A stretch of DNA of 64,000 nt from Psammoneis japonica (GCA_008632985.1 QPGO01000099.1:165679-229678), one strand, 5' to 3'; shown: positions 22,009 through 59,700, counted from the stretch's first letter. The notes: generated by a model from the sequence alone, not told the origin. A program made the numbers and translations.

Positions 22009-22398
22009 GACGCGTTCCAAGTCTAGGTGGGACCTCGCACTACTGAACTGTGACATCGACAGTTTTTTGAATCACGTCGTATGTCGCGCACGTAGATTTC
22101 TACGTGATTTTTTTGATATTTTGTGTCATTTTACGGTACACTTATTGAGCGATCCGTCCAACAACTTTTGACATTTTTTGTTACAGCGCGATTCTATAAT
22201 GTCTTAAGAATCGCGTAGGGCAGGTGCATTTGCAAAAACGTCGAGTGGTAAGAGGCATAATTGTACCACAAACTTGGCCGTTTATTTGATGTTGAAGATA
22301 AATATATCCATTAATTAAATTCTCGTACTACGGAGCTCGCACGTAGAATTCTACGGGCCCAATGTCACACGGAGTCCCACCTAGGGCTGGAACGCGTC
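22009..22398 (+). mobile_element. 390-bp MITE, ~25-bp TIR (GACGCGTTCCA..CTAGGTGGGAC), 4-bp TSD TTTA
   Basis: ttta|gacgcgttcc ... ggaacgcgtc|ttta. It is a near-identical inverted copy of 27474-27863. Confidence 0.92.
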
Positions 22399-22698
22399 TT
22401 TAATTCTTGCATTCGTGCATGGACACATTATAAGAAGAGACGTGGGTTTCCCCTTTTTTGATGATTCTGGTGTGATTGTTCTATGGTGGATGACAAGAGA
22501 ACTGTCCTGACGTTGTGCATCACTGGTTGCTGAGTGTGTCTGTCATTGCAATGATGCACTGACATCGATTTGTTAGATTGGACCCTTTGTTTTCTGTTGG
22601 TTGTTGCCGGGCACGCCTGCAAGCCCGCGTGCAAAGCTTGGAACATTTTCCAAAATGCAGAAACAATTCCCATGTGCAGCACCAAAATGTTCTGTGTG

Positions 22699-25600
22699 TC
22701 AATTGGACTGCAAAATGTCATCATGCTGTTCATTGGTGAAGCACGTGACACTTTTTCCTTCCATCAACCGGAGCAGGGCGTCACACCCGTCCGGCAGTCT
22801 GCACAGACTTAAGTCTCTCTTCAGCGGTTGCCGAAGACACAGACCATTTCTGGTCTCAACCCTGGAGAGCATGACACATGCCCAGTTTTGTGTGTGGCTC
22901 CAGCCACGCACAAACACATTGTCGACACCGCTTCCTTGAAGCTTGTGTCCTGCAGTCGCGTTGTTTGTTGTGAATGGCAATTGGGTTGCTTTCAGTCCGA
23001 GCACATGTTTCTCTTTTTCCTCAGCTGTCATCTGTTGGGTTGGGTCCTTTAAACAGGCTTTGAAAGTGGAAGACTCAGGCTTGAGCGAAAAGGTGGGTGG
23101 ATCGATGCTTTTGTTGCTGTGCTTGAGTTCTGCATGATCCACCTGGGATGCTGTGACACCTCGAATGGATGTTCCACAGTCCAAGACCACTTGCGATGAA
23201 TGTTCTCCTGGTTTCAGCACGACTTTTGCCACAGTTGCTTGTGTTCCGTTCGCAACACCATTTGCCACATTTTCATTGCACGGGATCATGACTCTACATC
23301 CCTTGTGTGTTCGTAATGCTGGATCAAGCCTGCCAGATTGCATTTCCACATCGCTCTCTCCACAGTTTTTCCAGAATGTTTTGTACACCGGGAAAGGCCT
23401 GTGCTGTCTTGCTCCGTCACGCACTTGTAAATCGTCACTGAAAATGGCTGGAGAGTCCAAGACTTCTCCATCTCTTTGGTGCAGTCTCTTGGTCCTTTCC
23501 TCAAACAAGGCTGTGTTGATGGAGTCTCTTTCTTTGTTTCTGTGTGATGCATGTTCAATGTTCTCTGGCAGTTGTTGACCCTTTCTCACTGCTCTTTCAT
23601 TGATTTTGTCGATGTCTTCGAGAGTCGCTTCGCCATCTCTAAATCGTTTTAGCAAACTGCCCCATTCTGGATCCTCACTGAATCTGTGCATCCCATGCAA
23701 CTGGATGTGGCAGTTCACCCATTCCTGGAATTCGGCACAGGTCTCCTTGCACAGAGGGTGCATTCCGTGTCCAACTGGCTCGAGTTGTCTCAGGTCCCCT
23801 GCAAACACCACATTTGCACCCCCACAAGGCCTGTCTAAATTGGATTTCACGACAGATGGATTAGCATGTAATTTTTCTAAATCTCTTCTGCAAGCAAATG
23901 ACATTTCGTCGACAATCAGCAGACGAGTGTCACTCCAGCTTTCCATTTGTGTTTCTGTTGTTTCTTTTTTCCTGTTTAGATGGGCAACTCTGTGAATGGT
24001 GTCTCCTTTCAGAATTGTCGCTGCAACTCCGGTCATGGCAGTGACGGCAATTGTTTTTGCAGTGAATGGTCGTTCAATTGAAGAGCAACATTCTCTTGCG
24101 CACAAAACAACAAGATCGACAACAGTGGATTTGCCACTTCCTCCTGCTCCATGCAAGAAACAAATTAACTGTGTGCCTCTTTGTTCTCGCACTTCAACCA
24201 ACTTGGCCAATCTCCTGCACTCTTTGTTAAATTCGTGTCCAATTCCTCCTCTTACATCACCACTTGCTTGTTCTCCCAGAGCGTCTTTGCAGTGCGTCAA
24301 AATGAAAGTTCCTGCCATGACTTCAAAAGCACGACTTTGATGTGGGTCTAGCTTGGCTTTTTTTGACCAATCAACTGAGCTTTTGGCTGAGCCGTTAGCT
24401 TCAAGGACATCAACGGCTTCTTCCGAATTAGTTGTGTCTTGGAAAGATCGTCGAATGCGTCCAGTCTTGGTCAGTGATGCTCAAACTGCATCTCGTTTCC
24501 CAATTTGAGGCACAGGTTCTTCATCTGCTTGCATGCTGTTTTCATTGTCTTCTTCATTAACCTCAATTTCTGGTGGCTCCATTGTTTCTACGACAGGGAC
24601 CGAATTGATGACAGTGTTTTGATCTGAAGAAGTCATGCACATGCATGCCAAGTGCTGACATCCTGCAAGGTGACTTCCCTTCTGTCTGGTTTGTTTGCCA
24701 CTTAAATTCGTGGGTGCGGCTGCTTCATCATTTGCTTCCATCCCGTCTTTGTGTTCATGGTTCACCAATTCATCTAGAAGAGCATCAAGCATTTGTCCTT
24801 GCAAAGCCGTTCCGATGTCGTCTTCGGTGTCGCTTTCGCACCTTGTGCTAAATTCATTGTCGTCCGATGCATGCTCGCGGGCAGTGCGTTTAAGAAAATC
24901 TGATGTGCTTTTTAATCGCAGACAATTAGATTTTGCATCTTGCAGATTTTGCAAGAATTTCAGATTTTCTTCAGTGACGATTTCTCTCTCCACCGCTTGA
25001 CGGAATGANNNNNNNNNNNNNNNNNNNNNNNNNNNNNNNNNNNNNNNNNNNNNNNNNNNNNNNNNNNNNNNNNNNNNNNNNNNNNNNNNNNNNNNNNNNN
25101 NNNNNNNNNNNNNNNNNNNNNNNNNNNNNNNNNNNNNNNNNNNNNNNNNNNNNNNNNNNNNNNNNNNNNNNNNNNNNNNNNNNNNNNNNNNNNNNNNNNN
25201 NNNNNNNNNNNNNNNNNNNNNNNNNNNNNNNNNNNNNNNNNNNNNNNNNNNNNNNNNNNNNNNNNNNNNNNNNNNNNNNNNNNNNNNNNNNNNNNNNNNN
25301 NNNNNNNNNNNNNNNNNNNNNNNNNNNNNNNNNNNNNNNNNNNNNNNNNNNNNNNNNNNNNNNNNNNNNNNNNNNNNNNNNNNNNNNNNNNNNNNNNNNN
25401 NNNNNNNNNNNNNNNNNNNNNNNNNNNNNNNNNNNNNNNNNNNNNNNNNNNNNNNNNNNNNNNNNNNNNNNNNNNNNNNNNNNNNNNNNNNNNNNNNNNN
25501 NNNNNNNNNNNNNNNNNNNNNNNNNNNNNNNNNNNNNNNNNNNNNNNNNATGACGTTGGTTTTGTCATGAGCATGAGCACTCCAGAGCAATCTTCTTACA

Positions 25601-28600
25601 GTTTCCGCTGCATCAGAAGAATGCTTTCTAAGCTCTGTCGCCAGTTTGTCAGTGACATTCAGCACTTCTTGGCAAGTGGCAGTGTCGTCTTTTTGGGTGT
25701 CTTTGAGTGTGTGCTCAATGGTGCACTGTGCAGAGGGGCCTGGCATCAGAGTTGCGATGTTTGTGTTGCATGTCAGCTTAGATCTGCTGATTGCAGGGCA
25801 CGACACATTCTGGAAAGCATCGCATTTTCTCCTCTTGGGGACAATTTCTTTGACGCATCTACAACGGAATGAGCCANNNNNNNNNNNNNNNNNNNNNNNN
25901 NNNNNNNNNNNNNNNNNNNNNNNNNNNNNNNNNNNNNNNNNNNNNNNNNNNNNNNNNNNNNNNNNNNNNNNNNNNNNNNNNNNNNNNNNNNNNNNNNNNN
26001 NNNNNNNNNNNNNNNNNNNNNNNNNNNNNNNNNNNNNNNNNNNNNNNNNNNNNNNNNNNNNNNNNNNNNNNNNNNNNNNNNNNNNNNNNNNNNNNNNNNN
26101 NNNNNNNNNNNNNNNNNNNNNNNNNNNNNNNNNNNNNNNNNNNNNNNNNNNNNNNNNNNNNNNNNNNNNNNNNNNNNNNNNNNNNNNNNNNNNNNNNNNN
26201 NNNNNNNNNNNNNNNNNNNNNNNNNNNNNNNNNNNNNNNNNACATGCCACAAACTCTGGGTTTGTCCAGCATTTAGTGCAATGAGGGCAATGCGCGAACA
26301 TGCCATTTTTTGATTTCTGACCGTGCTTGTGCCTCAGGTGTCGAAGCTGCTGATTGCTGACCATTTTAGGCACAGTGCGACAGGCAAGATTAACAGTGCA
26401 ATCATGATCAAAAGTTTCTGTGATGGACAGTCGAGTGTAATCCTCGCCACATGTCAACCCAGTTGTGCAGATCCGACTGGTCAGTTTGGACAGTGTTCTT
26501 TTACCATCACGCCTAAAATCTCCATTGTCAGAATGCAGATTGTCTCTTGCTGTGTTTGTGTCTTCAAACCATGCCTGAATGTGACCGTGTGCCGAGAGTC
26601 TACCTTGTTCTTCCATTGCAGCTGTGAAAGCGGAGGGTCTCCCTGTGTAGAATTCAAAATCTTCTCTGGGTGAATTCCTTTTTAAGTCCCATCCTGTTGC
26701 TTCTTCTGTGACGATTTCCAATGACATTTCGAGCGCAAAAGCCGTGACACCTGGGTGCTCCACACGAAGCTCGTTTCTTGCCTTGGCCTTTTCGGTCAAT
26801 TCTTCATCCGACATTTCTGTCACATCTCTGCCTTTGTCGATGAGCATGTCCGCACAAATTTGAACTAAAAAGGAATTGGCATCATCGGGGCTTGTCGTTG
26901 AAAATGCTCCAGGTTGTCCAAAGTGGTGTTGGCAGGTTTCAGCATTTCTTCTCATTTTTTTTTGCTGCTTCATTTGTGTGTGGAACAGATGCCGACACCA
27001 CATCCACTGCACTTAAGAAACGATGTCCCAATGCGCAATTCCTGCGTTCACCGGTCTGTCTGTCACACATGGCACGGTCGATGTCGTCTTGTGTCAGTTC
27101 ATTTGAGAATTGTCTGGCTTGATTTTTGTCTCTTGCTTTCCATCCAGCACTGTGCACCATTCGTTGCTTCACAGTCAGATTGCACAGGGTCAGAACAAAG
27201 AGTTGCTTGTGGAAGTGGGGCTGAGAAATGCGGGCCAAGTGATCTGCGCAATGTGCTAGATTTGTGCAGTCGGCGAGACTCCCATCTTCTTTCATTCTTG
27301 TTTCATTGATGCCGCCACGCCCACAAGGAAATTGCAGCAAGCAAGCATTTGCCAGGTTGTTGTCCTTAAAGTCACTGACTGATTCTTTCAAAAGATCAGC
27401 TTTGAATTCAATGTCAAAACCGCTTGCAGCTGCATCGTGCACCAAGTCTTTGAAGCTGTCTAAATTACGTTGTGACGCGTTCCAGCCCTAGGTGGGACTC
27501 CGTGTGACATTGGGCCCGTAGAATTCTACGTGCGAGCTCCGTAGTACGAGAATTTAATTAATGGATATATTTATCTTCAACATCAAATAAACGGCCAAGT
27601 TTGTGGTACAATTATGCCTCTTACCACTCGACGTTTTTGCAACTTCGCCTGCCCTACGCGATTCTTAAGACATTGTAGAATCGCGCTGTAACAAAAAATG
27701 TCAAAAGTTGTTGGACGGATCGCTCAATAAGTGTACCGTAAAATGACACAAAATATCGAAAAAATCACGTAGAAATCTACGTGCGCGACATACGACGAGA
27801 CTCAAAAAACTATCGATGTCACAGTTCAGCAGTGCGAGGTCCCACCTAGACCTGGAACGCGTCTTGTCCACCAGTTGTTGAAGAAACGGCACCATTGGGG
27901 AAATGAACACTGTGGGACTCCGTGGTTTCAATGTTTGCATTTTCGCTTTCGTCCAAACTGCCATTGTCCACTAAAACTGGATTCTGCAAATTGCTTCGCA
28001 CTTCCTCTAGATCGATGTCTTGATTCATCCAATTCTCGTGGTGATGGACAAGCCATTCCAGTGCTCTCATTGCACAGTGAGTCCTGATTTTGTTCTTTTG
28101 TCTGGCCATTCGCCTTTGCTCTGGTGTCATTTTGCCGGATGCCAACACAACCACATTTTGATGAAGGTTCAACACGTCAAAGTGCATGATGGTGCGGGCG
28201 ATGCTCTTCATGTTTGTCTTGCAATGGGAAAGACCACCTTGCAGTTTCTTCTGTTTGCCACCGACAAAACTGAAGCAGCAGCCATGTGTTTTCACAGGTG
28301 TCAACAAAGCTGGCTCTACTTTGGCAAGACACGATAATTCAGGTGGTGGTGTTCCAAAACAGCAATTGTTTGCTGTTGCGCACAGAGGCACAGAAGCAGT
28401 GCAGAGACTTCTTTTGCAAGGCCTGCAACAAGTGAATCCTTCAGACCTTCTGTTGTCGTTCGGAACAACATGTCGAGCTCTTGGCAAAAGCAACAGGTCG
28501 GAAATCCATCGGCAATCCCGTGGAATGTGTTCGTCATCGATGCGACAACAATCGTGCGGGTCTTCCGATGCTTGGTTCCATTCAGATGGAGTTGACAGGT

Positions 28601-28976
28601 GTCTGGTTTCTTTCAATTTGTTGACAGAAAGTCGAGCAGTCTGAGACGGTTTTGACAATCTGTCACACACCAAACAAACCCAAGGGATGTGCTCGTTTCC
28701 GTTCCTGCAGCGAAGCTTTTCAAAACGTCTGTTTGTGTTGTCTTGGTGCCTGGTGTTGCTGTCATCCACAAGACAGCTTGTGACGGCAGGCTCACACTGC
28801 GCAAAGATGAGTTGAACCAACAACGCAGCAATGGGTGCACACCAGATGACACGATGACCCATGAGACTTGCAATGAGAACAATCTGAGCAAAGTCAATGT
28901 GATCAACAGATGGCACGTTGTAGATCGCTCGTCTCGATTTGCTTGACATGTCATCGTTCGCTCGTGCGCTCTGCAT
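22699..28976 (-). mobile_element. Helitron-like Rep(HUH)-PIF1 helicase element, degenerate, interrupted by a MITE and two N gaps
   Basis: N-terminal ATANN..FGTPPPELS.L..VE and QFPCGRGG; PGAFSTTSPDD; HUH motif EEQGRLSAHGH; Y2-like QCTIEHTLK. PIF1 motifs are GAGGSGKS, TAMTGVAA, LLIVDEMS, FAGDLRQLEPV, VANGT, GHKLQG and CVMLSRV. Confidence 0.85.
27474..27863 (-). mobile_element. 390-bp MITE copy, 4-bp TSD TTGT, inserted in the Helitron-like ORF
   Basis: ttgt|gacgcgttcc ... ggaacgcgtc|ttgt. It splits the Rep ORF between the 27846-28976 and 26939-27445 segments. Confidence 0.92.
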
Positions 28977-29419
28977 TGGGATGCACTGCTGACAGCAGCG
29001 GCATCACACCGGTGAGGTCATGAACGTCAGCGGGAACGACATCTTGTGGAAGTTCAATGTGCGATGATGTGTCTTGCAGTTGAAGTCGGTTCTGCCCACT
29101 GCGACTGCACGACGTTTGTACGACTGTGACGCCTCATGTCTCGATCTGCTGCCAAGTGCAACAGATGTGTGTTGTTGCAGTGTGTCCTCATGATCGGCAC
29201 GTTCCTTTCATCCCACTTGTGAAATGGAAGGCGTCCGTCGATTGGGTGCAACAGCCCTGCGGCAGCATGTGCTGCACACATTGTGTGGGATGCATGCCAG
29301 ACACATGTTCTTGCTGACGCAGCACAGCATGTTTCAACGAATTCTGCTGTGCAAATCCCACTCATCATGCAACCGTGGCTGGATGTGAGGAACTGCTGGA
29401 TGGCCATTGCATCAGCAAT

Positions 29420-29700
29420 GTCATTCATTCTCAGTGCTGGCTCATCCAAACACAGCCCAGGTTCCTGATCAACGACGTTCTTCAAGATGGCGGCATGCCG
29501 GTGTGTCCACAAGTGTCGCTGGTGCCCTGTGCAAGATCTTGTCATCCAACCATCAGTTTCAGCAGGAGTCTCACCATGCTGAAGATGATGATTGAAATGT
29601 CTTTGACATGTTGAAGGATCATGGGTGTCCCGAGGAAGACAGAGATTGCTCGCTTGCTTGCACAGGTTGGAGAGCTTGGTTTTCGCGCCAGCTCCGACTT
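29420..29700 (-). pseudogene. Probable N-terminal (HTH) half of an IS630/Tc1-like transposase
   Basis: HGETPAET...ILKNVVDQEPGLCLDE..LRM resembles the ..P.LYLDE.. HTH segment of IS630-like transposases. Confidence 0.5.
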
Positions 29701-29884
29701 TGACAATGTCTGAGCCCAACCCGATTAGAACAAACGGAGATGACAGCCTGTTGAAAACCACGGCGATTGTAACGCCGGACCATTGGGTCAATCTTCATGG
29801 TGTTGCTTTGCTGATTTCCCAAAGCAAGAGTCCGCTCTGATTGCTCTTTCATTGAGTGGATGATTTCCGTGACAAAATGCCCCC

Positions 29885-30312
29885 CCGGCAGGTTGCTGAA
29901 CATTGTTTGTGCCCCATCGTTTTCAATGACACCAAGCACAGGACGTCATTTAAGACACAAAAGGCGATTGTCAGACAGCAGGCAGCGTTTGGGGAAAGAG
30001 GTGCTCGGTGCGAACAAACAACCTTTCTCGATTTCACACGAACAAAACAACGTTTTGCACGTCAATTTTCGCCAATTCTTGTTGGCAGTGCGTGCGAGAT
30101 TTGCTCTTTCGCGTTGTGGCCTTGTGGACCGTTCAAAGACGTTTCTAAAACGCCCCTGCATGTCTCTGGGCGTGGCTTGGTTGATGAGAAATAACGCCGA
30201 GAGTTGGTGAGAGTGGTGTGACGGGTGTTGTGACAACAAAAAAAAATTTGTTTTTTACGTTTGTCTGTGTGTGTGCAACTTGGCACTTTTTGGTGGAACA
30301 CCAACACGCAGC
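29885..30312 (-). repeat. ~430-bp inverted repeat, right (TA-depleted) copy
   Basis: It differs from 18242-18670 almost only at TA and CG dinucleotides. Confidence 0.95.
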
Positions 30313-30524
30313 TTGGACAAAAGGGTTTAGTCCCATGGGGGAATGCGCCACACGTGCGACTGTTGCCACCATGGCAAAACCTGTGGTTGCTCCACCACCA
30401 TCTTGGCACTTTTTGGTGGAACACCAACACGCAGCTTGGACAAAAGGGTTTAGTCCCATGGGGGAATGCGCCACACGTGCGACTGTTGCCACCATGGCAA
30501 AACCTGTGGTTGCTCCACCACCAT
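30279..30524. repeat. 123-bp tandem duplication (30279-30401 / 30402-30524)
   Basis: The unit cttggcactttttggtgg...gctccaccaccat is repeated apparently exactly. Confidence 0.9.
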
Positions 30525-33099
30525 CGCACTGCCGCAGAGGGCAACACAGCACGCACTGACACAGCAAACAGCATGCCAACAACACATTCCGCAATCACTT
30601 TTGGGCAATTGTTGGCAAATGTGACCAAACATTTCATCTTTTCGAAAGAGGAACCTCCAAGGAGCTGCTGCAACAAGGTTGCTTGCCTCCTTTGCTGGTG
30701 TGGTGCTCTTGACAAAAAGACCGCCAGTGATTTTGCCGCAACTTCTCATGGCACAAAAGAGCAAAAAACACTGGCTTGAGAGCTGCATCTCTGCCAGCAG
30801 TGCTGAAACAACCAAACCAACCCACACTTTTGTCGCACTGAGTTGCAGTGCCAAAAAAGTGGCTTCAGCTGGCCGAGCTCATTGCCACTGGAGAGGACAC
30901 TGAGCAGCATGCCAGCCAAAGCAACAGAGGATTTTTGACCCCTGTCATTGTTGAAAACTTGTGAGCTCTCATCATCTCAATTTTTGGAAAGCTTCCCCAG
31001 CACCCAGCAGCATTTTGTGCACATGTCACCGGCGGCTGCCCAGGGGGCACGTTCTTGGTGTGCTCCCTCTCCCCCCCTTGAGACCCACCTCCTTTTTGTC
31101 AGAATGTTGCCAAGCATCTGCTGCAAGCTCCTCATTCTCTTGCAGTCAGGAGAAGCCCAAATGTGACCCAGTCAAAATGTGACAGCTGTGACTCATGCTT
31201 TGCCTGCCACTCTGAAGAGCAGCGCATGGCATGTCTCTTGAGCTGCGCGCCTTGTTCCCTCAAGCTTCCTCTCTGATGTGTGCTCAGCCCAAAACAAAAG
31301 ATGGTCAGGAGGCCTGTTGCATGGAGCAGCAGATGTCAAACATGCAGCCATGGAAGGCAGGCACCAAGGACTCCAGCAGCATGTTTTGGTTGCTCTGTGT
31401 GGCCATTGTGTGGTGTGCCAAGAGCTGTGGTCAAAAGGCCAAAGCACTGGTGGCTGCAAAGACAGCCAAAGTGACAACAGAAAGCAACATGAAGCAAGTG
31501 TGTGTTTCAAGTGTTAGAGGCAGACTCTGTCTTGACCAAGCATGATGTTGTCTCAGCTTCTTGAGATGGCAGCAATCTTTTGAGGGAGTTGAGGGATTTT
31601 GACTCAAGATTTGTTCAGCAACATTGCACTGCTTTTGGCTCAACTGCACAGTCATCTTTGAGACAGAGCTTTGCTGAGAAAATTGGAGCTTTTTTTACAG
31701 TGGGCACAAACTGCACTGCCATGTCTTGGCCACCCCAGGTCAAATGCCCCTGAGTGGCTGCACCAGCAATGATGTGCAAACTGCGTTGTTGGGCCACATG
31801 GCTCTTGCTGGCATCATCACAAAGGCAGGTTGTGTGGTGGAACTTGCACCCACGTGTCATCACTTTGAAAGACCTTGCAAATGTGACTCAAGCACTGTCA
31901 TGGCACAGCAGCTCAGCCACAGTGATGCCTTTGCATGGTCACAGCCCACATCTCCTGCCAGTCAAAAGTGCTTTGCACACCTGGTTGAGTGTGGGGTGGC
32001 AGAGTGCTGGTTGCCGATGCATGGCATCTGGGGCAGACTTGTCATTGCTGCAAACACTGAGCAACATTGACCCCTGCACCACTTCAAAAGATTCACCCTC
32101 AACAGACACTTTTTCCAGACTTGGGTGCACAAACATGAAAAAAATGCCCCTTTTTGAATGAAGCACACAGCCCAAACTGCAAACACTGAGCACCATGAGC
32201 CCACACCACTTCAAAAGACCCGCCCTCAACAGACTTGGTTGTTCCAGACTCGGGTGTGCAAACGTGAAAAAAAAACCCTTTTGCGCGAAACTTGCAGTCC
32301 AAACTTTTGGCACCACCCTCAAAAGCAAAAACACAACAATCTTCAAATGTGGTGTCATGAACACATGCAAAAAGGTCTCTTGTGTGTGCCCTGAAAAAGT
32401 CTTGAATGGGTGACAAATTGTGTTTTGTCAAAACACTTTGAGCACAAGTTGCTCTCAATGAATTAAATGAGACACTCATTGGCGCTAAAGCTTGAGAAGA
32501 CGTGAGAAGAAATTGAACTTAGCCCATGCACAATGGCACCCACTTTGGACCCTTTTTTCACTGCTTTGCCAACATGGATGACTGGAACACTTGCATCAGT
32601 TGATGGTGTGGATGAAACACACACAGAAGTGGAAAGGAACTTGTCCTCAGAGGCACCAAATGGTGAGTGAAATGAGGCCAAAATGTTGTTGCCAACAGAT
32701 TTGTCTTGCTTCTTTTGCTGTGCTGCAGCCTGCACCAAGCATTTTTCCTGCTGTTGTTGATGACACAGACTGCACAAAAAAAGCAGGCCATCATCATTGC
32801 TGAAAGCCATGGCCATTCTGGCTGCAATTTGCTTCAACAACACAGCCCTTGCACTGGGAAGTGACATCCTTTCCAGACTGGAGGTGTGCAAAGCTGCACT
32901 GCACCAGCCTTGGCACATTTGTGGCTGGACAAAACCTGTCAGAAAAGTGTTGCAAAGGGAGACAGCTTCAAAATGAGTGCAGCCCAACATTGCTGCACAA
33001 GCCACAGCTGCTCAATGCCTGCAGCAAGCTTTGTTCAAAAATGAGCTTGTTTGGCTCTTCTGGCAAGGTTTCTTCACCACCATTCAAAAGAACAAGGAG

Positions 33100-34540
33100 C
33101 TGACCCCTCTCTTGTTGAAGAAGTCAGCGCCAATGTGTGCACTCATGCTCAACCCACCTCACCCATTGCTGGTGGCTAGACAAAATGGGCTTCACCAACA
33201 ACTTACAGCCCAGTCATCTGAGGCTTGGGTGCCCCTGATCAAAATGTTTCTGGTGTTCAGAGTTTTGTGGATGAATCACTCTTTGTGCTGTGCATTGAAA
33301 AACAGAGCTGGCAAGAAAGCGTGGCACTCTGCATGTTGGACAGAGGCAAAATTGCAAATTTTTTTGGAGACACCCACACAAATGAAAAGGATTTGCTTCT
33401 TCCGTTTGCCACTCAAGCATCATTTCACAAGTTCAATGCAAGTCGTGCAGTTTTGTTTCACTCTGCAAATGCAAGAGAACAGGCGCATGCTGAGTCGGCC
33501 GGAAAAGTGCTGTGAAACAACATTGCCACATTCGCAGCAAGTGGCAGCCCAAAAATGTCTGCATCAAAGGGGGAATTGGTTTTGTTGAAGTCCAAGTCTG
33601 TGTCCAAATCTGTTGTTGCAAACTGCAAAGTGCTCGCGACAGGTGTTGACAAGGTGGGTTGGGACCCAGTTGCAATGGCTGACCCTGTTTGCATTGTCGC
33701 AGTCCTTGCACATGAAATGATTTGGCATGCAAGCTGGAAAGGAATTGACAAAGACCGTGGTTGCATTTTTGTTTCTGTTCCAGTTGCTTCTCAGGAAGAA
33801 TCACAGTCCAAGGATGCCAATGGATGCAAAATTTTCACTGCTGCTTTTGAGGCCATGGTTGGTCTGGATCCCAAATTACGTCAAGACGTCTTGTTTGTGA
33901 TTGAAGAGAGTGACAGACTCAGAATGCCCTTGAAGGATGCCAAGTTCCCTCCTCTTGTCCTTGACTCCTTTGTGCTTCCTGATTCATTGCCATTTGAAAT
34001 GAAAAATGACATCATGAAAATGCAAAGTTCTTCACAGCCACAAAGAGGAAGGGATGATTTTAGGGAGTTGGTTGAGCACACAGAGGGTGAAAAAAAAGAA
34101 TGGGAGGCCAGGTGTTTCTCATCAACAAGCTCTCAAGAAGGCTGGTGATGTGTGGGATGGGGTGGATCTTGGAAATTGGCTGTGCAAGCAACGGGTGGCC
34201 AAGTGGAAGGGGAAACTGGATGCTTCTTGACAAAGATGACTGGAGAAGACTGGCGTTGAATGCTGCATTTTGGCTGAGTGACAGGAAGCCATGTTTTCAT
34301 TTCTGGGTCAATTCAATGAACGGGAGGGACATTGCAGGGTGCCTCAATGACACATTGAAAATGGAAAGAGACTTGGAGTTTGGATGGGCAATCAAAAGCA
34401 AGCATGGAAGGCGGGAAAGCTGGAGAACAGCCGCATGAACCGACTGCTGGATCTTGGCATTGTTGTTGCTAGAAAGCAGTCTCTGCAATGTGGGAACTTT
34501 GTTGGTCTCGTGTGTGTTTCTGTTTTAAAGAATGAAAACA
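33100..34540 (+). pseudogene. Hypermutated, frameshifted paralogue of the HA-domain helicase at 129-2249, including 3' flank
   Basis: ANCKVLATGVD, AFEAMVGLDP.LRQDVLFVIEESDRL and QKQAWKAGKL..NRLLDLG are shared. GY->GC occurs twice and the stop region gagtagt->aagcagt. Confidence 0.9.
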
Positions 34541-42863: not shown

Positions 42864-43099
42864 GAATGGCTCGCTATCGAAAGACGTTCGAAAGCTGTTG
42901 CTCTATCTAACCCAAGCACTGAAAAAACCGACACAAGTTCTCAAACTTCACCAAGGTATGTGCTTTCTCTCTGATCTATTGAATGCAAATGCAAATCTTG
43001 TTGGCGGATACCGGTAGAGCGGGCGCATCAAAACCACACGCATCGCATCGCACCCGCATCAATTCACGAGCGCGACTGAAAAATGACGGGAAAGCGAAA

Positions 43100-44250
43100 A
43101 ACGCGACCCATGACACGACTGAATGCAGCACAACAACCATCCCAGTGCAGTGGCCAGCAGCAGCGATCACAGCTGGTGACATGGCACCTCTGATGCTGTG
43201 GTTCCAGCTCTCGTTCGTTGTGTTGACAATTTGAAATGAAGCTCGAACAATCACTTCACAGAAAAAAGCATGGGCTGATGACACCAGTCATCTCCTCCCG
43301 CAGCGAGGTGTGGTCATTGTGCATGTTGTCCACAAACAATTGCCACGAGTCAGACCCGAGTGCTTGGGTCTTTGATGGTGTTTTTGTGCAAATGATTGCT
43401 TGCATCTTTGGAAGTCAGTTTGAGGTGAAATTACAACCACCCATCACAGAGCAGTCTCAGGGCCTTGGCACGGAGACAACGAGGCAGAGAGGGTGTTGCT
43501 TCTTTCAAAGTGCACAAGGGTGCCACAGTGCGCCAAGAGCTGGAAGAAGCTGATGTGTTTGGGGTCCGAAGCATGCCAGAGGTTTTGGCAAAAGATCAAG
43601 CAATGCATCCTGTGCCAGCAACGTGCAGTGTCCTTTCAACCTTTTGGGGAAGCACGCGCTCCCCTGGCTGGCTTGTGGCCAGTGAAGTTGTCAACACAAG
43701 GTGAGGCCAAGACACTTGCACTCAACACCCAACTTCTGGGTGACACAACACTCTTTTGTGGCTGCACTTGTTTCCTTGGGTCCAGCAAACGCAAAGCTTT
43801 TAAGGCTTTGGCATCTTGGCAAAGTGAAGAGAGTGGAGTGGGCTCAGAAGTCATGCTGCAGGCACCACTTGCACAGATGGCTCAAGTTGGGCACCTTCCA
43901 AGTTTTGAGCTGGTCTTCATTGCAAAGGTTGGCTGACCAGGGTCATGGCAAGACTCTTTTGAAGCACAAGGGTGTTTGGGTTTGGTGAGTCTGCATTTGC
44001 AACTGACTTTCCTGCACAGACTGAGCTGCTTTCAAGCACCAGAGTCACATCAAGCCAGTGGGCCATGCTGTTCTTGCCCCAAGAGTGTCATTTCCTGTGG
44101 TTGCCACATTGCAAGTGCCATGAATTTTTTTCAGATGGTTGAGCTGTTTTGGCCAGATTCGAGCCGAGAAAAGCAGCAACTGGTCTGCCTCAAAGGCAGA
44201 CTCGGATCCCTGCGGACACTCAAGATCTTGAGTGTCTGCATGTCTTTAGA
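43100..44250. pseudogene. TpA- and CpG-depleted degenerate segment; left edge homologous to ~53760-53960
   Basis: cgagcgcgactgaaaaatg.cgggaaa..aaaaacgcga and cagctctcg.tcgttg..gctcgaac.atca are shared with the 53.8-kb region. Composition is shifted to TG/CA. Confidence 0.6.
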
Positions 44251-46791: not shown

Positions 46792-47915
46792 TGTGCGGAG
46801 TGAAAAAGTGAAAACGGTGGGAATTACAGTATGATGCGTGTAGCTGCTGTCTTTGACTCTTATCTTACGGATGTGTGATGTGGTTGCAGGAGGTTTAATA
46901 GGGCCCTACAATGCCGTAAGCGGAGAGACATCATCATAGCGCCCAAGCGGAGACACCATAGCCCACAGGCGGATAGGTACGCACCGCGCATATGTGTTCT
47001 GAGCTTCAAAACGAGTCGAACGAGTCGGAAATCAGTCGTTCGAAGCTGTGCTTGAGCTTTGCCTGCAACATCGAAAATCCACGTTGGTTTACATTGTGCT
47101 GTTGAAACTTTCAATCACTGGCACTAGAGTCAGTGCTTCCTTTCCTTCCTCTCATCTGAATTGGTTCAAGTCCAGACACATCTCCAAACAGTGTGGGGTT
47201 TGGCCCCATGACAGCAGCATCGCAACGAGTTTTTTTCTTGCCTTGACCATCTTTGGTGGCTCCATGTCTGATGCACATCTGTCTTCTGCAGGATCTCGCT
47301 CTTCCACCTTCTCCTCTTCTGTTGGAAAATCACTTGACACACCATTCTTGCTGCCATCAGCACTTCCTAAAATGGCAAGTTCGCCACCAACACCACCGCA
47401 TCCAGCAGCTGTTCCAGCGGGATCAACTTCAATGGATGTGACTGTGCTGCTGTGAATGGAAGGAACAATCGCCTCTCCATGACCCCCGCCCCCTTGGTGG
47501 GATCCACAAGCTGCATGACAAGACCTCCTCTGCTGTCCCCACAACTTGGTGCCAACAAAATTGCCATGATTGGGAGAGACAGATGACCGTTTCTGGGCAA
47601 CTTCGCCAGCATGCGTGGAATGTGAGGCACAACGCAAAAGCACGGAAGCTCTCACTGAGCCACAACTCCACTTTGATGATTGCATGCTCTTTGCGGCTTT
47701 GATGGCAGAATTTTGGTTTGTCTTTTCCTTCGACCAGTGGCCCACGTTCCGGTTTCCAAGCCCAGCGGCAGCCAAGTGTGACAGACAACCTGTTCATCAT
47801 CATCAGCGATGCACCAATCAAGCCCAGCAAGCCAAGCTGCAATCAAATCAGCACGAGGCACTTGGAAAAATGGGAGAAACATGGGCTTGCCATCACCAAT
47901 GCTTTGCATTCCATG

Positions 47916-48347
47916 TGCAGTGTGCACGCAGACAAAAGGTTGTTTTTGTCACGCCCTTTGTGACATTTAAAGGCTGTGACACGTCGCCGTGATGCATTGG
48001 CTCTTGTCAGTGGCTGTGTGTTGCACTCCTCCCCATGTGTCACGCGTCCATGCAGCTCTTTACTGACGTGTGCTGACACTGCACGGTTTTGGTGGAACAG
48101 TGTGGGCATGCACAAAGGAACACACAGAACTGCACAGAGTTTTGCGCGTTCGACAGTGATCAACGTTGCTGCAGACAACTCCCACTCAGGGTTTCGAACC
48201 CCTGGCCTCCTGCCTGGTGGTTGCGATGTGCCACTCCGCTGAGAATTCACAATGCAGTGTGCATGCAGACAAAAGGTTATTTTTGTCACGCCCTTTGTGA
48301 CATTTAAAGGCTGTGACACGTCGCCGTGATGCATTGACTCTTGTCAG
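47916..48347. repeat. 95-bp direct repeats (47916-48010, 48253-48347)
   Basis: tgcagtgtgca.gcagacaaaaggtt...gatgcattg.ctcttgtcag occurs twice with 3 mismatches. Confidence 0.9.
48179..48246 (-). other. tRNA-like/Pol III element (pseudo-tRNA or SINE head)
   Basis: Minus strand has CAGCGGAGTGG (A box if CA was TA) and GGTTCGAAACC (B box) in a T-arm stem CAGGG/CCCTG. There is no clean cloverleaf. Confidence 0.5.
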
Positions 48348-50018
48348 CAGCTGCACATTGCACATGCTTCTTGGTGCTCACTTCCTTTTCCACCAGTGTG
48401 GGGCCCAGCTCCCTGTGCATGTTCACTCAACGCCTGGCAGAAATTGAGCCTTTGGCAATTCCTCCAGCGCCAAATGCATTGCACATGACTTCTGCAGAAA
48501 AGCTGTGTTGGGCACCATCCAAAGTGAGCAATTTGCAGCTCTGTGGCATGCGCAAAGAGACTCAAACTCAACAAAAACAGAACAACATCCTTGATCGCTT
48601 CTGGACCTTGCTGCTTCCTGTTGCAACAGGTGTGCACACGAACAAAAAACAATGAGAGCCAACAAAGCCAGCAACACAAGACCTCGCCAACCACACTCAC
48701 CTTCCAAGTGTGAGGTCGATCCAAGCAGGCAGCATTTCCCAGCCAATGTTGCTTTCAAGCACTTCCCTCATCACTCGTCACCTTGCCAAACTCATCTGGA
48801 CTGCCGCTGGTCCAGGGAGGTGACTGAACATTGCCGGTTGCCTTGAATTCTTGTTGTGTGCTTGCTCACATTCTTCAAAGAGGCAGGGTTGCAATGGCAC
48901 TCTGGGACAAGCTCGTTTGCCTCTGCCGCCAAAGATCCAGTGCGCATGTCCCACATCTGGGGAATGGAACTGAAAAGCCTGCTGTCCGCAACATCAAAGT
49001 GCCCCCCTTGAAGCTGCCGGTGAAAAGGTTGATCTGTGCAAAAGATGTGCACCCCAGTGAGCCATCCGCCAGTGGCCAACTGGCAGAATCTGAGGAGCAC
49101 AGCAACAGCACCAAGAAGAAAACCAAGAAATCCAAGAAGCGCAATGATGATGATGAAAATCAACACTCCTTTTAGGATGAGTTGTGACAGAAGTTCCTGC
49201 AAGATGCAAAGGACTTCGACAAGGAACTGCCAGAGTTGCACAACACAGCAGATTGCAGCTGGTCACACCTCTGCTGTGGCTCTGGCTCTTGCTTGTTCTT
49301 GCTGATTTGCAATGCAGCTTGAACAATCATCACTTCACAGAAAGCATGGGCGTTGACCATCAGAGATGCACACACTGGTCCTGTGTCTCTCTCTGCTCTG
49401 CCGCTCAACAAGAGTGCCCAGAGTGATGTGGCTTCCAAACCAATCAATGTCATGCATTGGCAACCACATGAAGAAAGATTTGACCCATGTGTGTGTTTTG
49501 CCTGCCAGTCAAAAACAAGACACGCACACAGAGGGTGCAGGATTTGAAAATTTGCAGAAAAACTGTGAGGTGCGAAAAGCTGCAAACCAAAGTGGGCAGT
49601 GCTCAATGATCAGCTTGAACATGACACTTGTTGGAGGTGACACGTGGTTTGTGCCAGGATGTCAACAAGAAGTGGAGAGTGTGCTTGTCCAGCCAAACTG
49701 TTCAGCAGAGCTGCCAATTCTTGACACCACTCTCTGACAAGGCGCTAGGATCTGCAGTGCAAACAGCTTCAAAAGTTGCCAGAAGCTTGACCACACCCAC
49801 CTGTTTGGCTTCTGTCTGAACAAATGCATCCCCTCAATGCCCAGCTCTTGTTCTTTGCCAGCCCGTGCAGCAAACTGGGTGTGGGCATTTGGGTCTGCTC
49901 CCCACAGTTGACAGAAAGCTTCGCCATGTCTTTCAGGGGGGTCAGGAGGGTCAGGGTTGGGTTTTGAGGGTATTTTTTGGACAGGGAAATGTTTGCCCAA
50001 ACCTCATAATTTCGCAGC

Positions 50019-52400: not shown

Positions 52401-54189
52401 GCTTTCCAATTTGAATGCAAATCCAAATCTTGTTGGCGGAGCTGGGGCATTCCAGCATCGCAACACGACGGGAAAGATATAAACGCGACCCGAACAAAAA
52501 ATTAACAAAGCCAGCAACACAAGACCTCACCGATCGCGCTCACCTTCCAAGTATGAGATCGATCCAATCAGGCAGCATTTCCCAGCCAATGCTGCTCTCA
52601 AGCACTTCTCTCGTTGCTGTACCATATCATGACTAGCGACTCGACATTGCCAAAAGCCTTGACTGTCTCCCATCAACGGTCAACGCGACGGTATCAAAAA
52701 ACCTTTTCTTTCCATTGCTTGTCAGTATCAGCAAATCAGCAATAGGCGCGGCCTCTGGCTTTACTAGACTACCCATCATGGCACCATACGCTGATTTAAC
52801 TCTTCAAGGCCCAACGCGTTCTTGAAACATGGCAGCCGATTCGTCATCCTCTTCCTTCTTCATGGTCCTCATCGTGACTCCAGCTAGCATGTCCGTCCAT
52901 GGCAATGACAAGGCATCGTTCCTCGTATGCTCTTCTCGAAACACAAAGCATATCACGTCGCCCACCGGAGATTCTCGGCTTATTCTCGCGTCTCGCGTGG
53001 TTTCTTACGACCTTCTCTTCGTTGCTAGAGTGACGATATATTCGATTCTGTAGTGCTTGACACCGTGTGTATTCCCATACTCCGACAGAGCGCCTTCAGC
53101 ATCGGATGTATTGGCGGCGTGTTCTGCAATGGTCGAGTCACGCTTTGCTGAACCTTCGCAGCACTTCGAGTATAACCCCCTTACTTTCATCGTTTGAATC
53201 ATAACCGCTACAGCAACTTGGATGTTGAAAAGGCATAACATTGAAGAGCATATCTTCCATATTATTCGTATTGTCATAAGAAGACGTGTCCATCATACCA
53301 TGCACGGTCCTTGGCATCCGAGAGTGTATCGTACGCTTGCTGGACCAATCGAAATTTCTCTCCGGCTTCCTTTTCAGCTCCAATATTCTTGTCTGGATGA
53401 TACTTCAGAGCAAACTCGCTTTAATTTTTCTTTATGGCAGCATCTGTGTCATCTAGAGGAACTCCTAAAACATCGTTGTGGCGCTGAATCTCGGGCGACT
53501 TGTCGTCGCACATTTTCTTTTCGTTGTTTCCTTCGCTGCTGCTACATGGCTGCTACTCTTGACCAAACGACACTGTATGAATCGTAGTATTGTTGCCTTA
53601 TTCACCAGTATGTTGAAGAATAGAGACGGCAATTGAGACGTTGGGCCTTGCACTCGAATTCATTGTCCATTGCAACCGCGGCAGCCGACAACGCTAACGG
53701 GTAGCAAAAGTAGCAACAGCACTTGACAACGCACCGCCGAAAGCGGAATGAATCATCCATCATCCGAGCGCGACTGAAAAATGGCGGGAAAACCAAAAAC
53801 GCGAACCAAAACACGAGCTGACATCATCAGTTCCGCAGGTAACACCCGGTACTACTTTCAACTTCGCCAACTTGCACAAGTAGCTCTATGATATCGCATC
53901 ACAGCTCTCGCTCGTTGTTGCTGATTTGTTATGCGGCTCGAACGATCATGTCATAGAAAACAAACGACAACGCAACAACGGTACAGTGTGTTGTGATGCC
54001 GTTGATCTCCTTCCGGCTCTTTCATTTTTCGCGCACAAAAAGACGCAGAAAAAGTGCGCGAGCGAGGCGAGGCAGTGACTCAGTCCCTTTCTGGGCCGAG
54101 AATGCTTTCTCATTGCCTTGTTGTCTCAGGAGAAACGTTGTGGCCAGTACGCGGACGACTACAATAGACAACGTTTAATAAGAATCAAG

Positions 54190-55472: not shown

Positions 55473-55498
55473 ACTCGATCAAATAGAGTACTGTATTA

Positions 55499-55761: not shown

Positions 55762-56362
55762 TTAGAGAATCCCGCCACCAGAATGGAGAGCCTGAATATG
55801 TTGTATGGACGAGGGGAAAGTGAGAAGATTAGCTTTCTGTCGATTCTTAACTGAACCTTTTTCATTTCAGCAACTCTTTCTCGGCGTAGCTTACCTGATA
55901 TTCATTGAAATATTTCATTCCTACAGTTCCCAACAATCCTAGGAAAAATGCACCTCCATACAAGAAGGGGCCAACTCCCAAATCATCGGCTTGTGCTGCC
56001 GCATAACGTCTCATTTCGAGAAATTTCTGACTCCTCTCACGATCACTTAGAAAATCGTCCACTTCGGCTTCGGCAAATTCTTGTGTCCGTCCCATGGATA
56101 TGTATTTGAGAATCATTTCCTGCCGGACTTCTTGAACTTCTTCCGACTTGAGTTGCTCTTGCCACAGAGCTTCTTCATCAACAAGGACTTCGTTGTTGGT
56201 GCTTTCAGGTGCAGAGGCATTTTCCATGAACAAAGCGGGACCAGCACTACTTGATCGTTTTGCTTGATTTGAAAAGCTTACCCGAGAAGACGGAGCTACT
56301 GTAAAACCGTTGGAGGAACCCAACAACAATGCAAACGCCGTAATCAAACCAATGCCAGTCAT
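55762..56362 (-). CDS. Small plastid-targeted membrane protein of unknown function; intron ~55792-55894
   Basis: Signal peptide plus NGFTVAP and a C-terminal TM helix. The gtaagc..ttcag intron gives ALHSGGGIL*. Confidence 0.7.
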
Positions 56363-56709
56363 TCTGAACCGTATCAAGCAACCAATGTCAACAACAACCC
56401 AAACCGCAATGGCAAGTTTGCCTCATTTTTTCTCGCGAAACCAAGCCATCTGTCTTTTTGTCGTAGAATTCTACGTGGAGTTCAGTACTTGCGTCACGCA
56501 CCTTTTGCTTCAACGTTATGCCACCCGCGCTTTTCTCGCGCGAAAAGAATGCGCGATCTTTTCGAACCCATCGACTCGTCAAATCATCACGCGCAACACG
56601 CATCACGATCGCTTCTCGCATCAATTTTTCTGCACCGCATCAACGATGACGTAGGATCGAGCCCCGCCGAGGACTCATAGAGCTACGCCGTCACTGATTG
56701 AAGCTCCCA

Positions 56710-59700
56710 GCCACAATATGATGTCATCTGCAGAGGTCAATGTTCAAGATCGACGAGGCTTTGAGTCGCCCGTTTTGTGTGTTTGGCGCGGTTCTCATGA
56801 TGGCCAGCATCCGGCATTCTTCTCTCTGTGACTCTGCATTTGCACGTTTGGGTGTCAGCGCAATGGTTTTTCTCTTGGGATTTAAAACATGGTGCACTTC
56901 CATGCAAATCCATCAAGCGCCTCGTGATGGTGCACCTCATTTTGTGGGGTGCAAAAGGTGCGGTGGCACAGAACAACCAGAGCCACAAGCACTGCTTTGC
57001 ATCGGCGACTCTCCGACTCTTCTTGAAAGGCTCAATCAAGAAAGCAACACTTCAACACAAGACAATTTTGATGGTCAACATCCATTGCATGTCACAAATG
57101 CCGGTCAGAACAGCGTTGTTTGTTCTTGGACTGTGAAGCATGAAGAAAGACTGGGTGCAGTTCTGAGTGCATGCTCTCCACTCTCCGGACTGCTTCTTGC
57201 TGTGAATTGGAGCTGACAATTTATGATCCATCTGCAAGGCATTGTGGGGATGCAAGAACCAACCATGGATGACCTCTTGCTCCGTGTTGCAGCCATGTTG
57301 AGCGGCCATGTTGAGCGGCACGGTGCAACACGAAAACAGCAAGTGCGCTGGGTGCAGTTTGTGCCCTGCCTCCCATGTGGTTGCAAAGAAAGCAGATCGG
57401 CTGACCAAGTTTGCAAGGCAACAAGAAACTCAGAAAAAAGCAATCTTTCAATGTCTTGAGAAGAATGAAGGATGTGCACTTGTCAAATCCAAGGATCTCC
57501 AGCTCATGGTGCCCGAGGTTGCAGCTTTGCGAGAGTGGATCAATGCCTCTGGCAATGGGATGCTGTGCATGAATCAGTTCTTTCGTGCCCATCTTCCAAA
57601 AGAGATCAGTTGTTTCTGAAGAACCTGTGTCAAGATGTGTCAAAAATTGAGTGTCAGAATGACACCACACTCCACATTTCTCAAGCGGAGCTCTGCACGA
57701 GACGGGCTCCAGCCCCAGGTGGGACTCCGTGTGACATTGGGGGCCCGCAGAATTCCACGTGCAAGCTCCACAGTAAATTTGTGCTGCAATGAAAACATGA
57801 ATGATTGCCAACAGAAAAAGAGGCAACCTCACAAGTGCATCTCCTCCTCCATGCTCAAAGCACATCATCAACAGTTTGCCCGGGTGCATTCTTCAGACAT
57901 TTGAGAATGTGCCCAGCGCATTTTCATTCTCATGAATGTTGAAAATAGAAAGCCTTTGGCTTCGCAAAACAGGGAGCATGAAACAATTTTGTAGAATGCA
58001 ACATGCAGAAATGCACGTGCGCAACATGCGATGTGATCCAAAAAACTGTTGATGTCACAGTGCAGCAGTGCGAGGTCCCACCTGGAGCTGGAGTGAGTCA
58101 GCTCTCCTCTTTGACACGCCGGTTGTGTTTCAGGCAGCGCGTGGGTCTTTTCTTCTTTTTGTTGTCACGGCATTTCTTTTGACATTTGTTGTTGCAAAGC
58201 AATCCCAAAAACTGTTGATGTCACAGTCATGCAGCAGTGCGAGGTCCCACCCAGAGCTGGAGCGTGTCACGAGCAAGTCCGAGGACAAGAGATCAATGTG
58301 CACATTTTGGTGCATGAAAGATCCTGCACAGCTGGTGGAGAAACAAGTTTCAAGCACAGTCAGAAGTGGCAATTTCATCGATTCAAAAAACTTGTCTTCT
58401 CATTTGGATGTTTTGATCTTGCCTTTCGGAGTTGCCAACAGGAAAGATGGAAACTCAGTGACTTGTTGCATTCCTCTGGGCGATGTTTGAAAACGGATCG
58501 GAGTGTCAATGCAACATGGCAGTCACCATGTTTGGTGATCTGTGTCCAGCACGAATGTTTCTCCAGAAGCCCCTGTGCTTGGTGATCTGTGTCCAGCACG
58601 AATGTTTCTCCAGAAGCCCCTTGATGGGTTGTTGACCACTCTGATTCTGAGGTCAATGTTGCCACAGGGCAAAGTGCATGACTGCACCTGTTTGTGATTG
58701 ACATGAGGGGTGAAGAAGGCAGCTCCATTGTTCCACCCACCGCAAAGTTTGAGCTCACCCATCATGGGGAGGAACCAACCCCTTGACCAAATTTGAGCTC
58801 AGGTGCGCGCTCCCAGCCAAGAGTTGTTGCACTTGCACAACCTTCTGCAGAAGAACCAGCTGTTGCTCACCTTGTTCCATCATCAGGAGAGACTGAATCT
58901 TGTGGGTGCAGCAGGCTCCAGCTCCTCCAACGAGACGAAGTGGTCGCGACTCGCCGTTTGCAGCTGCAAAAAAGTTTTCAGTGTTGCAAGAGGATCAGGT
59001 GCATCTTGCAGCCTTGAAAATGATCAGGTGCATCTTGCAGCCTTGAAAATGATTGGATTTCCATTGCATGACACCAAACAAGGCACCCCAGTTTGTCAAC
59101 TTCACCAAGAAGCTTCCTGCATGGATGGAAGAATGGAGGGATGCAGCAAAAGAGGAGCTTGAGGACATTGGCACAGAAAAAGAGTTTGATTTTGGCCCAG
59201 ATGCTCAACTGCGAACTGATGGGCACTCACTCAATGAAAAGAGCAAACTTTGCAAGTTGCTTGCCGGGAATGGCAAGTGCAAACTGTCCGCCGGTGGAAT
59301 TGCGGCAATCCGGCAAATGTGCACAAGCTGTGTGATGGAATCTCTGCCAAATTTCCACCCAGAAATGGATCCATTGGCCGGCATGCATGCATCACAAGGT
59401 GTGATGTCGCACCTCTGCAAGGCAACATGCAAGAAGATTCATGAACTGGAAGAGAAGGGTCCGTGGCATCAACGTGCTGACACTGTCAAAGCCAACACTG
59501 TCAAAGAACAAGCTGAGCAAGAACTTCAAAAAGACCAAGCTGGCAAGAGAAAGCTCTGCAGAAAGAGAGCAGCAACTTTGACAAAGCAGTGTGGCAGTTT
59601 GAGAACTGGGCCCATGTGGAGAAGAAGAAAGAGCAGCTGTGGGTCCCAACCCTTGAGCAAATCCAAACTGGCACAGCAGGCGTGCTCCTGATGAGCGCAC

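Follow-up and report, generated by a model that had tools for sequence, protein, structure and literature searches.

To our knowledge, A:T→G:C hypermutation directed at the dinucleotide TpA against selfish DNA had not been known from any eukaryote before a 2026 preprint on the chlorarachniophyte Bigelowiella natans. In mutation-accumulation lines of this alga, a giant virus and a virophage integrated in the genome were hypermutated from TpA to TpG/CpA, as described in the main text of that preprint (Mettrop et al., 10.64898/2026.01.13.699255). The same text gives a rate about 1000-fold above background with a spectrum that is almost purely AT→GC, and a TpA Rho of 0.45 for the region of nucleocytoplasmic large DNA virus (NCLDV) origin; it also reports that TpA-depleted clusters are enriched in DDE and reverse-transcriptase domains, and an ADAT2-like adenine deaminase is proposed there (10.64898/2026.01.13.699255). 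Here we report on the diatom Psammoneis japonica, in which a window of 64,000 nucleotides (the whole stretch of DNA analysed, GCA_008632985.1 QPGO01000099.1:165679-229678; all positions are counted from its first letter) holds blocks of transposon-filled DNA that are depleted of TpA. Three copies of a family of short elements lie within such blocks, two of them unconverted and one converted to TpG/CpA. [quoted passage not shown]

Five blocks were delimited: A (4700-6100) and B (18850-34470), both depleted of TpA and CpG, and the likewise depleted C (43016-44246), D (47000-50007) and E (56720-60437). Block B consists of nested transposons and gene fragments and was taken without two MITE islands and two runs of N. 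Over the five blocks (23,423 bp) the observed/expected ratio (o/e) of TpA was 0.09 and that of CpG 0.50, with TG at 1.64 and CA at 1.65; in the 38,875 bp outside the blocks, the corresponding values were 0.60, 1.02, 1.16 and 1.13. Within block B the ratio per kb varied from 0.03 to 0.19 for TpA and from 0.14 to 0.74 for CpG. The edges of the blocks are sharp to about 50-190 bp and lie between host genes. Depletion of TpA and depletion of CpG were correlated (Spearman 0.62, P 0.004, in 20 one-kb block windows), and the blocks are therefore nests of different ages. The deepest depletion was found at 30868-33868 in block B (TpA o/e 0.03-0.04, CpG 0.14-0.21), a part without a recognisable Pfam domain which is probably the oldest layer of the nest. 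The CpG decay that accompanies the loss of TpA was absent from an earlier note on this DNA, in which the three elements had been described.

Copy 1 of the element (22009-22398, minus strand) and copy 2 (27474-27863, plus strand), both of 390 bp, lie in block B, and copy 1 is the reverse complement of copy 2 (the inverted-repeat match is 96% complementary). Copy 3 (57701-58268, plus strand, 568 bp) lies in block E. Each is flanked by a target-site duplication (TSD): TTTA for copy 1 (22005-22008 and 22399-22402), TTGT for copy 2 (27470-27473 and 27864-27867) and ACGA for copy 3 (57697-57700 and 58269-58272). The TSD is therefore 4 bp long in all three window copies, without a target consensus, and the termini are GAC..GTC in all three. 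The ends of the MITE read GACGCGTTCCAG, two variable bases and CTAGGTGGGAC; they form imperfect terminal inverted repeats (TIRs) of 25 bp, in which the left end and the reverse-complemented right end are identical at 23 of 25 positions. A pattern made from the TIR core had 7 matches in the window against 0.61 expected, all of them at the three MITE copies and with both ends of each copy represented. Internal to the TIRs are subterminal palindromes of the CGTAGAAWTCTACG type, which are probably transposase-binding sites. In copy 3 the right end is duplicated, with a first, inner end at 58099 and an outer one at 58190-58268. What can be aligned between it and copies 1 and 2 is confined to its two ends, about 75 bp at the left and about 100 bp at the right; the interior is unrelated, and copy 3 therefore belongs to another subfamily. 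The three copies, with the coordinates and 4-bp TSDs that the earlier note had given them, are thus borne out by the flanks and by the TIR-core matches. Tc1/mariner elements duplicate TA, hAT elements 8 bp and piggyBac elements TTAA; membership in these three groups, which had already been doubted, is rejected by the TSDs TTTA, TTGT and ACGA.

The three copies are found in two conversion states. Copies 1 and 2 contain 28 and 27 TpA respectively (o/e 0.90 and 0.91), whereas 2.75 would be expected in 390 bp at the density of the surrounding block (Poisson P ~5e-19 and ~5e-18), and their earlier description as TA-rich islands in a TA-depleted block holds. Their CpG o/e is 1.5 and their TG/CA o/e about 0.83-1.14, i.e. 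they are not depleted. Since both copies are unconverted in a converted block, and copy 2 interrupts a Helitron coding region of that block, they entered block B after most of its conversion. In contrast, copy 3 has 3 TpA in 568 bp (o/e 0.08), where the density outside the blocks would give 23.6 (P 1.4e-7), and a CpG o/e of 0.53. In the parts of copy 3 that can be compared, 4 of 5 TpA were converted at the left end, 5 of 5 at the inner right end and 3 of 3 at the outer right end; CpG had become TG/CA at 2 of 7, 5 of 11 and 3 of 6 sites, and other positions differed at 1 of 50, 11 of 75 and 9 of 56, respectively. At one and the same TIR TpA (in CCTAGA), the inner right end now reads TG and the outer one CA. 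This result indicates that the duplication of the end preceded conversion, and that conversion took place in situ. Three relatives of the element on metagenome contigs from other organisms (L004, L005 and L006, see below) keep CTAGG in the TIR, and L006 also keeps ACGTAGAATTCTACGT. Therefore the TA state is ancestral, which fixes the direction of change in both TIR and palindrome. The changes that the earlier note had quoted from these two parts of copy 3 are present, and the erosion of its TIRs is real.

Repeats and paralogues within the window provide a measure of direction and rate. A 430-bp repeat is present as an unconverted copy just outside the left edge of block B (18243-18672, plus strand, within ~150 bp of the edge) and as a converted copy inside the block (29885-30312, minus strand); the two are in inverted orientation, 93% identical and without an obvious TIR or TSD. 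It can be seen from this pair that 20 of 24 TpA were converted, 12 to CA and 8 to TG, as compared with 4 of 27 CpG and 4 of 325 other positions. The historical rate ratio relative to other sites, from this one repeat pair, is therefore ~146 for TpA and ~13 for CpG. The pair is the cleanest ruler for conversion in the window. An older pair is formed by the intact HA-domain helicase gene at 129-2249 (matched part 985-2224) and its converted paralogous fragment in block B (33592-34454, plus strand). Here 16 TA→TG/CA and 26 CG→TG/CA changes were counted, with one of each in the reverse direction, alongside 169 other differences. When the polarised comparisons were pooled, 48 of 54 TpA were converted. 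TpA is thus changed to TG/CA fast and CpG more slowly, while other sites are almost unchanged. Conversion follows location, not homology between copies: the fragments of the HA gene and of a BEACH-domain gene (48795-49262, minus strand, in block D; repeat match 48661-49262 versus 52504-52612 outside the block) are converted inside the blocks, and their counterparts outside are intact or unconverted.

The TpA that survive in the blocks are not a random sample with respect to sequence context. YTAR sites make up 74 of 129 survivors in blocks and 268 of 1635 TpA outside, whereas RTAY sites make up 6 of 129 and 554 of 1635, respectively (chi-square 139, P 6e-30). Among the block survivors TTAA is enriched 5.3-fold and TTAG 4.2-fold, with no ATAT left. 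Conversion thus seems to depend on the tetranucleotide, being fast at RTAY and slow at YTAR. Taking the five blocks as a whole, the surviving TpA lie mostly in TTAA, TTAG, CTAA and CTAG, and ATAT, ATAC, GTAT and ATAG are nearly gone.

Other copies of the family were sought in contigs of the same organism, from sequencing runs (X1-X3) whose contigs hold the host genes of the window, and these were matched to the stretch 21600-22800 at 80% likeness. Run X1 gave 3528 contig pieces on this 1.2-kb stretch; X2 gave only 2 and X3 only 13. The summed depth was 86,000-578,000 in the bins of the MITE versus 55-3100 in its flanks; the sum is not a copy number, and the MITE family is very abundant in the genome. 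At 22398 many contigs pass from the element into sequence that no longer matches (28 loose ends, agreement 0.35). The empty site of copy 1 is represented by two contigs, which join 22004 to 22399 and 21999 to 22399. At the first joint, which omits 394 bases, four letters fit both sides and correspond to a single TTTA. The boundaries of copy 1 and its 4-bp TSD are therefore confirmed independently of alignment. Likeness to copy 1 is graded, with 506, 993, 1402 and 627 pieces at ≥99%, 95-99%, 90-95% and <90%, respectively. We then considered the best-supported 40 of 101 variant places, 18 inside the MITE and 22 in its flanks. Among these 18, 14 were TA>TG/CA, with shares of 0.36-0.88 of the summed depth, two were TG>CG and two CA>TA; at the last two, where copy 1 reads CA, TA is present in a minority of the genomic copies (shares 0.10 and 0.13). 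The sequence on either side of copy 1 belongs to a converted transposon, and at the best-supported 22 places there, other genomic copies had TA instead of TG/CA at 10 and CG instead of TG/CA at 6. Conversion is thus graded across the MITE copies of the genome. It had been claimed that the family is captured at three stages of mutation; the window holds two states only, with no intermediate, while the graded series is found in the genome-wide contigs.

On the explanation that we favour, transposon-filled regions are subject to a DNA-level, strand-symmetric and context-specific mutation process. Its main effect is the change of TpA to TpG or CpA, at a rate that exceeds the rate at other sites by about two orders of magnitude and is apparently lowest at YTAR such as TTAA and TTAG. 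CpG changes to TpG/CpA about ten times more slowly than TpA, presumably through decay of methylated CpG; transposons are reported to be CpG-methylated in diatoms. Copy 3 entered block E before or during conversion and was converted with the block, TIRs included, while copies 1 and 2 arrived in block B when most of its conversion was over and are still unconverted. By analogy with the proposal for B. natans, we infer that the enzyme acts by adenine deamination. Methylation may likewise account for the loss of CpG, the chromatin domain may be what is targeted, and erosion of the TIRs would be expected to cost the element its mobility.

The class of the transposon was approached through its TIR. 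A scan of metagenome contigs with the TIR gave 8 loci, of which five (L001-L003, L007 and L008, GC 0.42-0.68) have only the 25-bp pattern in common with the element and were regarded as chance or unrelated. The other three, L004-L006, come from other organisms, are AT-rich (35% GC), carry GACRTGTTCCARGTCTAGGTGGGAC and have GAC termini. Their TIR-bearing parts are 461-1075 in L004, 1-218 in L006 and 5-29 in L005; L004 and L006 are alike beyond the pattern, and the palindrome is present in L006. The interior of L004 contains three pieces of open reading frame (ORF) in different frames, reading towards the TIR, which match residues 58-229 of the 326-residue protein P0295 (83% and 71% identity). 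P0295 scores 27.0 bits on PF06918 (DUF1280; cut-off 25). The remnant in L004 is frameshifted and cut off about 75 bp from the TIR, and L004 appears to be an internally deleted element on its way to a MITE. The link to P0295 came from a search for longer proteins only. The three ORF pieces alone gave nothing above threshold in Pfam (DUF1280 at E 0.14), and a representative search with the 65-residue piece gave 54 matches, all of 42-250 residues, with a faint DUF1280 signal in 1 of 19 scanned. DUF1280 corresponds to Chapaev transposases, described from animals according to the relevant passage of PMC3985635, and the hallmarks of Chapaev are given as a 3- to 4-bp TSD and invariable CAC..GTG termini in that of PMC4079192. 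The 4-bp TSD found here fits the first of these hallmarks, and an element that shares the TIR holds a DUF1280-type remnant. Most likely, then, the family belongs to a Chapaev-like (CMC) lineage with GAC..GTC termini, although we do not file it as a member. It differs from Chapaev3 in having no TWA target, and its hosts, a diatom and the AT-rich metagenomic organism, differ from the animals in which Chapaev and DUF1280 were described. Sola elements reportedly also have a 4-bp TSD, and this is the only feature that fits; what is linked to the TIR is a single protein remnant, and that one is DUF1280-like. There is no Pfam family for Sola according to PMC5751038, a paper in which TSD lengths are given for none of Sola, Academ and Ginger.

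Several points weigh against the above explanation or against parts of it. The evidence for the transposase comes from a single metagenome contig of 1075 bp, which stems from another organism and shows only one TIR. Relatives of P0295 were not found in the scan of viral contigs, no intact autonomous copy was seen, and the window holds no transposase-like ORF of that type (with P0295 and 7 relatives as tblastn queries, no match had an E value under 0.29). Moreover, Chapaev termini are CAC..GTG, whereas those here are GAC..GTC in 3 of 3 window copies, with GAC in 3 of 3 relatives. The search for Chapaev-type transposases suggested in the earlier note was thus positive at one remove, through the L004 remnant and P0295, and negative at the termini. 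With regard to the mutation process, the spectrum in B. natans is almost purely AT→GC, while here CpG→TpG/CpA is found too (o/e 0.50 vs 1.02; 4 of 27 CpG in the 430-bp pair plus the 26 events of the HA pair), and CpG decay may be a process separate from TpA hypermutation. On the strand taken as edited, the 48 polarised conversions show no clear preference at −2 or +1, and clustering of TG versus CA outcomes was not significant (runs test, 8 runs in 20, P 0.16). No more than about 175 bp of copy 3 is comparable with copies 1 and 2. The contig evidence consists of per-site shares, not per-copy haplotypes, from 40 of 101 variant places, and X1 may be the assembly's own source. Between copies 1 and 2 (97.4% identical) there are 10 differences in 390 positions, 3 of TA type and 2 of CG type; there is no TA-type excess (P for at least 3 of 10 is 0.12-0.36, by transition:transversion weight), and TA/CG positions do not differ from the rest (Fisher P 0.18). 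The three TA versus TG/CA differences formerly quoted are present at 22042, 22197 and 22060, but the claim that these two copies have already begun to convert is not supported, for the 10 differences fit ordinary divergence. Finally, nothing in the window shows the process active at present. The proposal that mutagenesis is cumulative and ongoing after insertion is therefore retained in its first part, the ends of copy 3 and the paralogue pairs showing cumulative change in place, and not as to current activity.

Four other explanations were weighed. If the direction were the reverse, a C→T process at CpA/TpG, resembling repeat-induced point mutation (RIP) of fungi, would have enriched copies 1 and 2 in TA, and poverty in TA would be the original state. 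It is true that the TpA o/e of about 0.90 in these copies exceeds the host background of 0.60, and that at two places at which copy 1 reads CA, TA is found in a minority of genomic copies (0.10 and 0.13). This is nevertheless hardly credible, since TG/CA o/e in copies 1 and 2 is about 0.83-1.14 and CpG o/e 1.5, and the blocks lie far under the host level of TpA (0.09 vs 0.60). In addition, the intact HA gene keeps TA that are lost from the dead fragment, relatives in other organisms keep TA in the TIR and palindrome, and the occurrence of TG and CA at one site in the two right ends of copy 3 is explained only by a TA ancestor. A different possibility is that the blocks are foreign or viral DNA that was TA-poor on arrival, with copy 3 simply a diverged subfamily and no mutation in place. 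Integrated viruses are the targets in B. natans, and a Pfam match was obtained for only 2 of 95 block ORFs of at least 90 residues (in five of six block sections). However, the blocks hold a Helitron, a DDE_3 transposase and fragments of the host genes HA and BEACH, and in the 93%-identical repeat pair nearly all differences fall on TpA and CpG. Elsewhere in the genome, copies of the transposon flanking copy 1 retain TA and CG, and the duplicated ends of copy 3 were converted independently. It therefore seems very improbable that the blocks arrived in their present state.

ADAR-like A-to-I hyperediting of double-stranded transcripts, fixed by reverse transcription, would act at the RNA level. 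The upstream U/T preference does resemble that of ADAR, as the B. natans preprint remarks in its main text, but what has been converted here are DNA transposons, gene fragments and a MITE, nested together in an unbroken block of 15.6 kb whose edges are defined to within ~100 bp. TG and CA outcomes are equal, on both strands, and TSDs and nested insertions are kept in place; editing of RNA is on this evidence scarcely conceivable. The last alternative concerns only the reading of time: copies 1 and 2 could have been spared not by their youth but by an episodic or triggered process, for example one dependent on transcription or small RNAs, in which case insertion time would be unreadable. According to the main text of the preprint, only 11 of the 15 B. 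natans lines showed hypermutation, which is considered a regulated process there, and the 430-bp repeat has an unconverted copy no farther than ~150 bp from the edge of block B. On the other side, about half of the family's summed depth is converted at each listed TpA, and MITE copies are thus not exempt; copies 1 and 2 are 97.4% identical and 506 of 3528 pieces are at least 99% like copy 1, which fits recent insertion. We regard such sparing as unlikely, though it deserves more weight than the other three.

The transposons of block B include a DDE_3 (Tc1/mariner-type) transposase ORF (20590-21948, minus strand, PF13358, E 1.7e-15) and the Helitron coding region (22699-29003, minus strand) with PIF1 helicase, Helitron_like_N and DUF6570. 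The Helitron is broken by MITE copy 2, whose flanking ORFs carry DUF6570 and Helitron_like_N, and by two N-run assembly gaps (25009-25549 and 25877-26241), and its coding region is incomplete in the window. ORFs of at least 90 residues are numerous in the blocks, with 95 in ~18 kb on both strands in the five sections mentioned above; they are long because TAA and TAG have been lost. Gene finders would over-call ORFs in such DNA, and converted transposons evade homology-based repeat annotation. Near-perfect tandem duplications were noted in converted sequence at 30276-30521 (123 bp x2, 99%) and 58529-58621 (46 bp x2, 98%); these are younger than most of the surrounding conversion, or homogenised. 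Outside the blocks the window is occupied by dense, intron-poor host genes, coding for the HA-domain helicase, S49 peptidase, DDX10-type helicase, Mpv17, NDH2, O-fucosyltransferase, SET, MYND and leucine-rich repeat (LRR) proteins. Judged by its proteins, too, the host is a diatom: for NDH2 and the DDX10-type helicase, the best matches that bear a name come from diatoms (50-61% identity), with one Lotharella and one Alexandrium-labelled record among them. At 62404-62629, in unconverted sequence, there are two overlapping inverted-repeat pairs (arms of 68 and 55 nt, 90-91% complementary) which may be another small foldback or MITE-like element.

Literature searches, from whose coverage most subscription journals fall outside, found no report of a TpA process in diatoms; in PMC9258296, hypermutation comes up for immunoglobulins only. 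The signature is now seen in a different major and ecologically dominant lineage, on ordinary transposons and gene fragments, and near completion; the process therefore looks general rather than one alga's curiosity. A bolder proposal, which we put forward tentatively and at rather less than even odds, is that diatoms and chlorarachniophytes share a targeted DNA-editing defence that marks transposon or viral chromatin domains and changes TpA to TpG/CpA about 100- to 1000-fold over background, with a preference for RTAY over YTAR that would point to a sequence-reading enzyme. If so, the system would be old within the group of stramenopiles, alveolates and Rhizaria (SAR), or have spread within it; TAA/TAG stops, AT-rich promoters and transposase-binding TIRs would all be destroyed by it, and thousands of MITE insertions would form a built-in series for reading its rate, episodes and domain boundaries.

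Compared with other known processes, the signature resembles the decay of methylated CpG in that CpG→TpG/CpA loss is confined to transposon blocks (o/e 0.50 vs 1.02), but such decay accounts only for the slower half of it. With fungal RIP it shares the character of a genome defence that makes context-specific transitions in transposon copies and leaves a dinucleotide signature, a parallel also drawn by the B. natans authors in their main text. RIP changes C to T mostly at CpA and creates TpA, whereas TpA is destroyed here; and RIP mutates both duplicates, whereas here one member of a pair is converted and the other untouched, and homology between copies alone therefore does not mark both. RIP was rejected on these two grounds, TpA being lost, not gained, and one member per pair being converted.

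The closest counterpart is the process in B. natans. The two differ in host, a diatom here as against a chlorarachniophyte, and in targets, which here are a Helitron, a DDE_3 element, a MITE and gene fragments and there giant-virus and virophage inserts. Depletion is deeper here (o/e 0.03-0.19 versus a Rho of 0.45), and YTAR sites survive preferentially. The rate in B. natans was seen in real time, while the ratio of ~146 given here is historical and comes from one repeat pair. The terms CpG, MITE, Helitron, context and diatom do not occur in the main text of the preprint (10.64898/2026.01.13.699255), and several handles go beyond it: the apparent preference for RTAY over YTAR, the slower CpG decay as a second clock, the sharp domain edges, and an abundant MITE family with copies from untouched to fully converted. 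In both genomes, however, TpA changes to TpG/CpA on both strands, the change is confined to foreign or selfish DNA, with the neighbouring genes spared in our window, and clusters low in TpA and high in CpA and TpG are found genome-wide. Taken together, the process in P. japonica is of a kind described once before, in B. natans, and what is added here is a new host and further detail, not a new kind of process.

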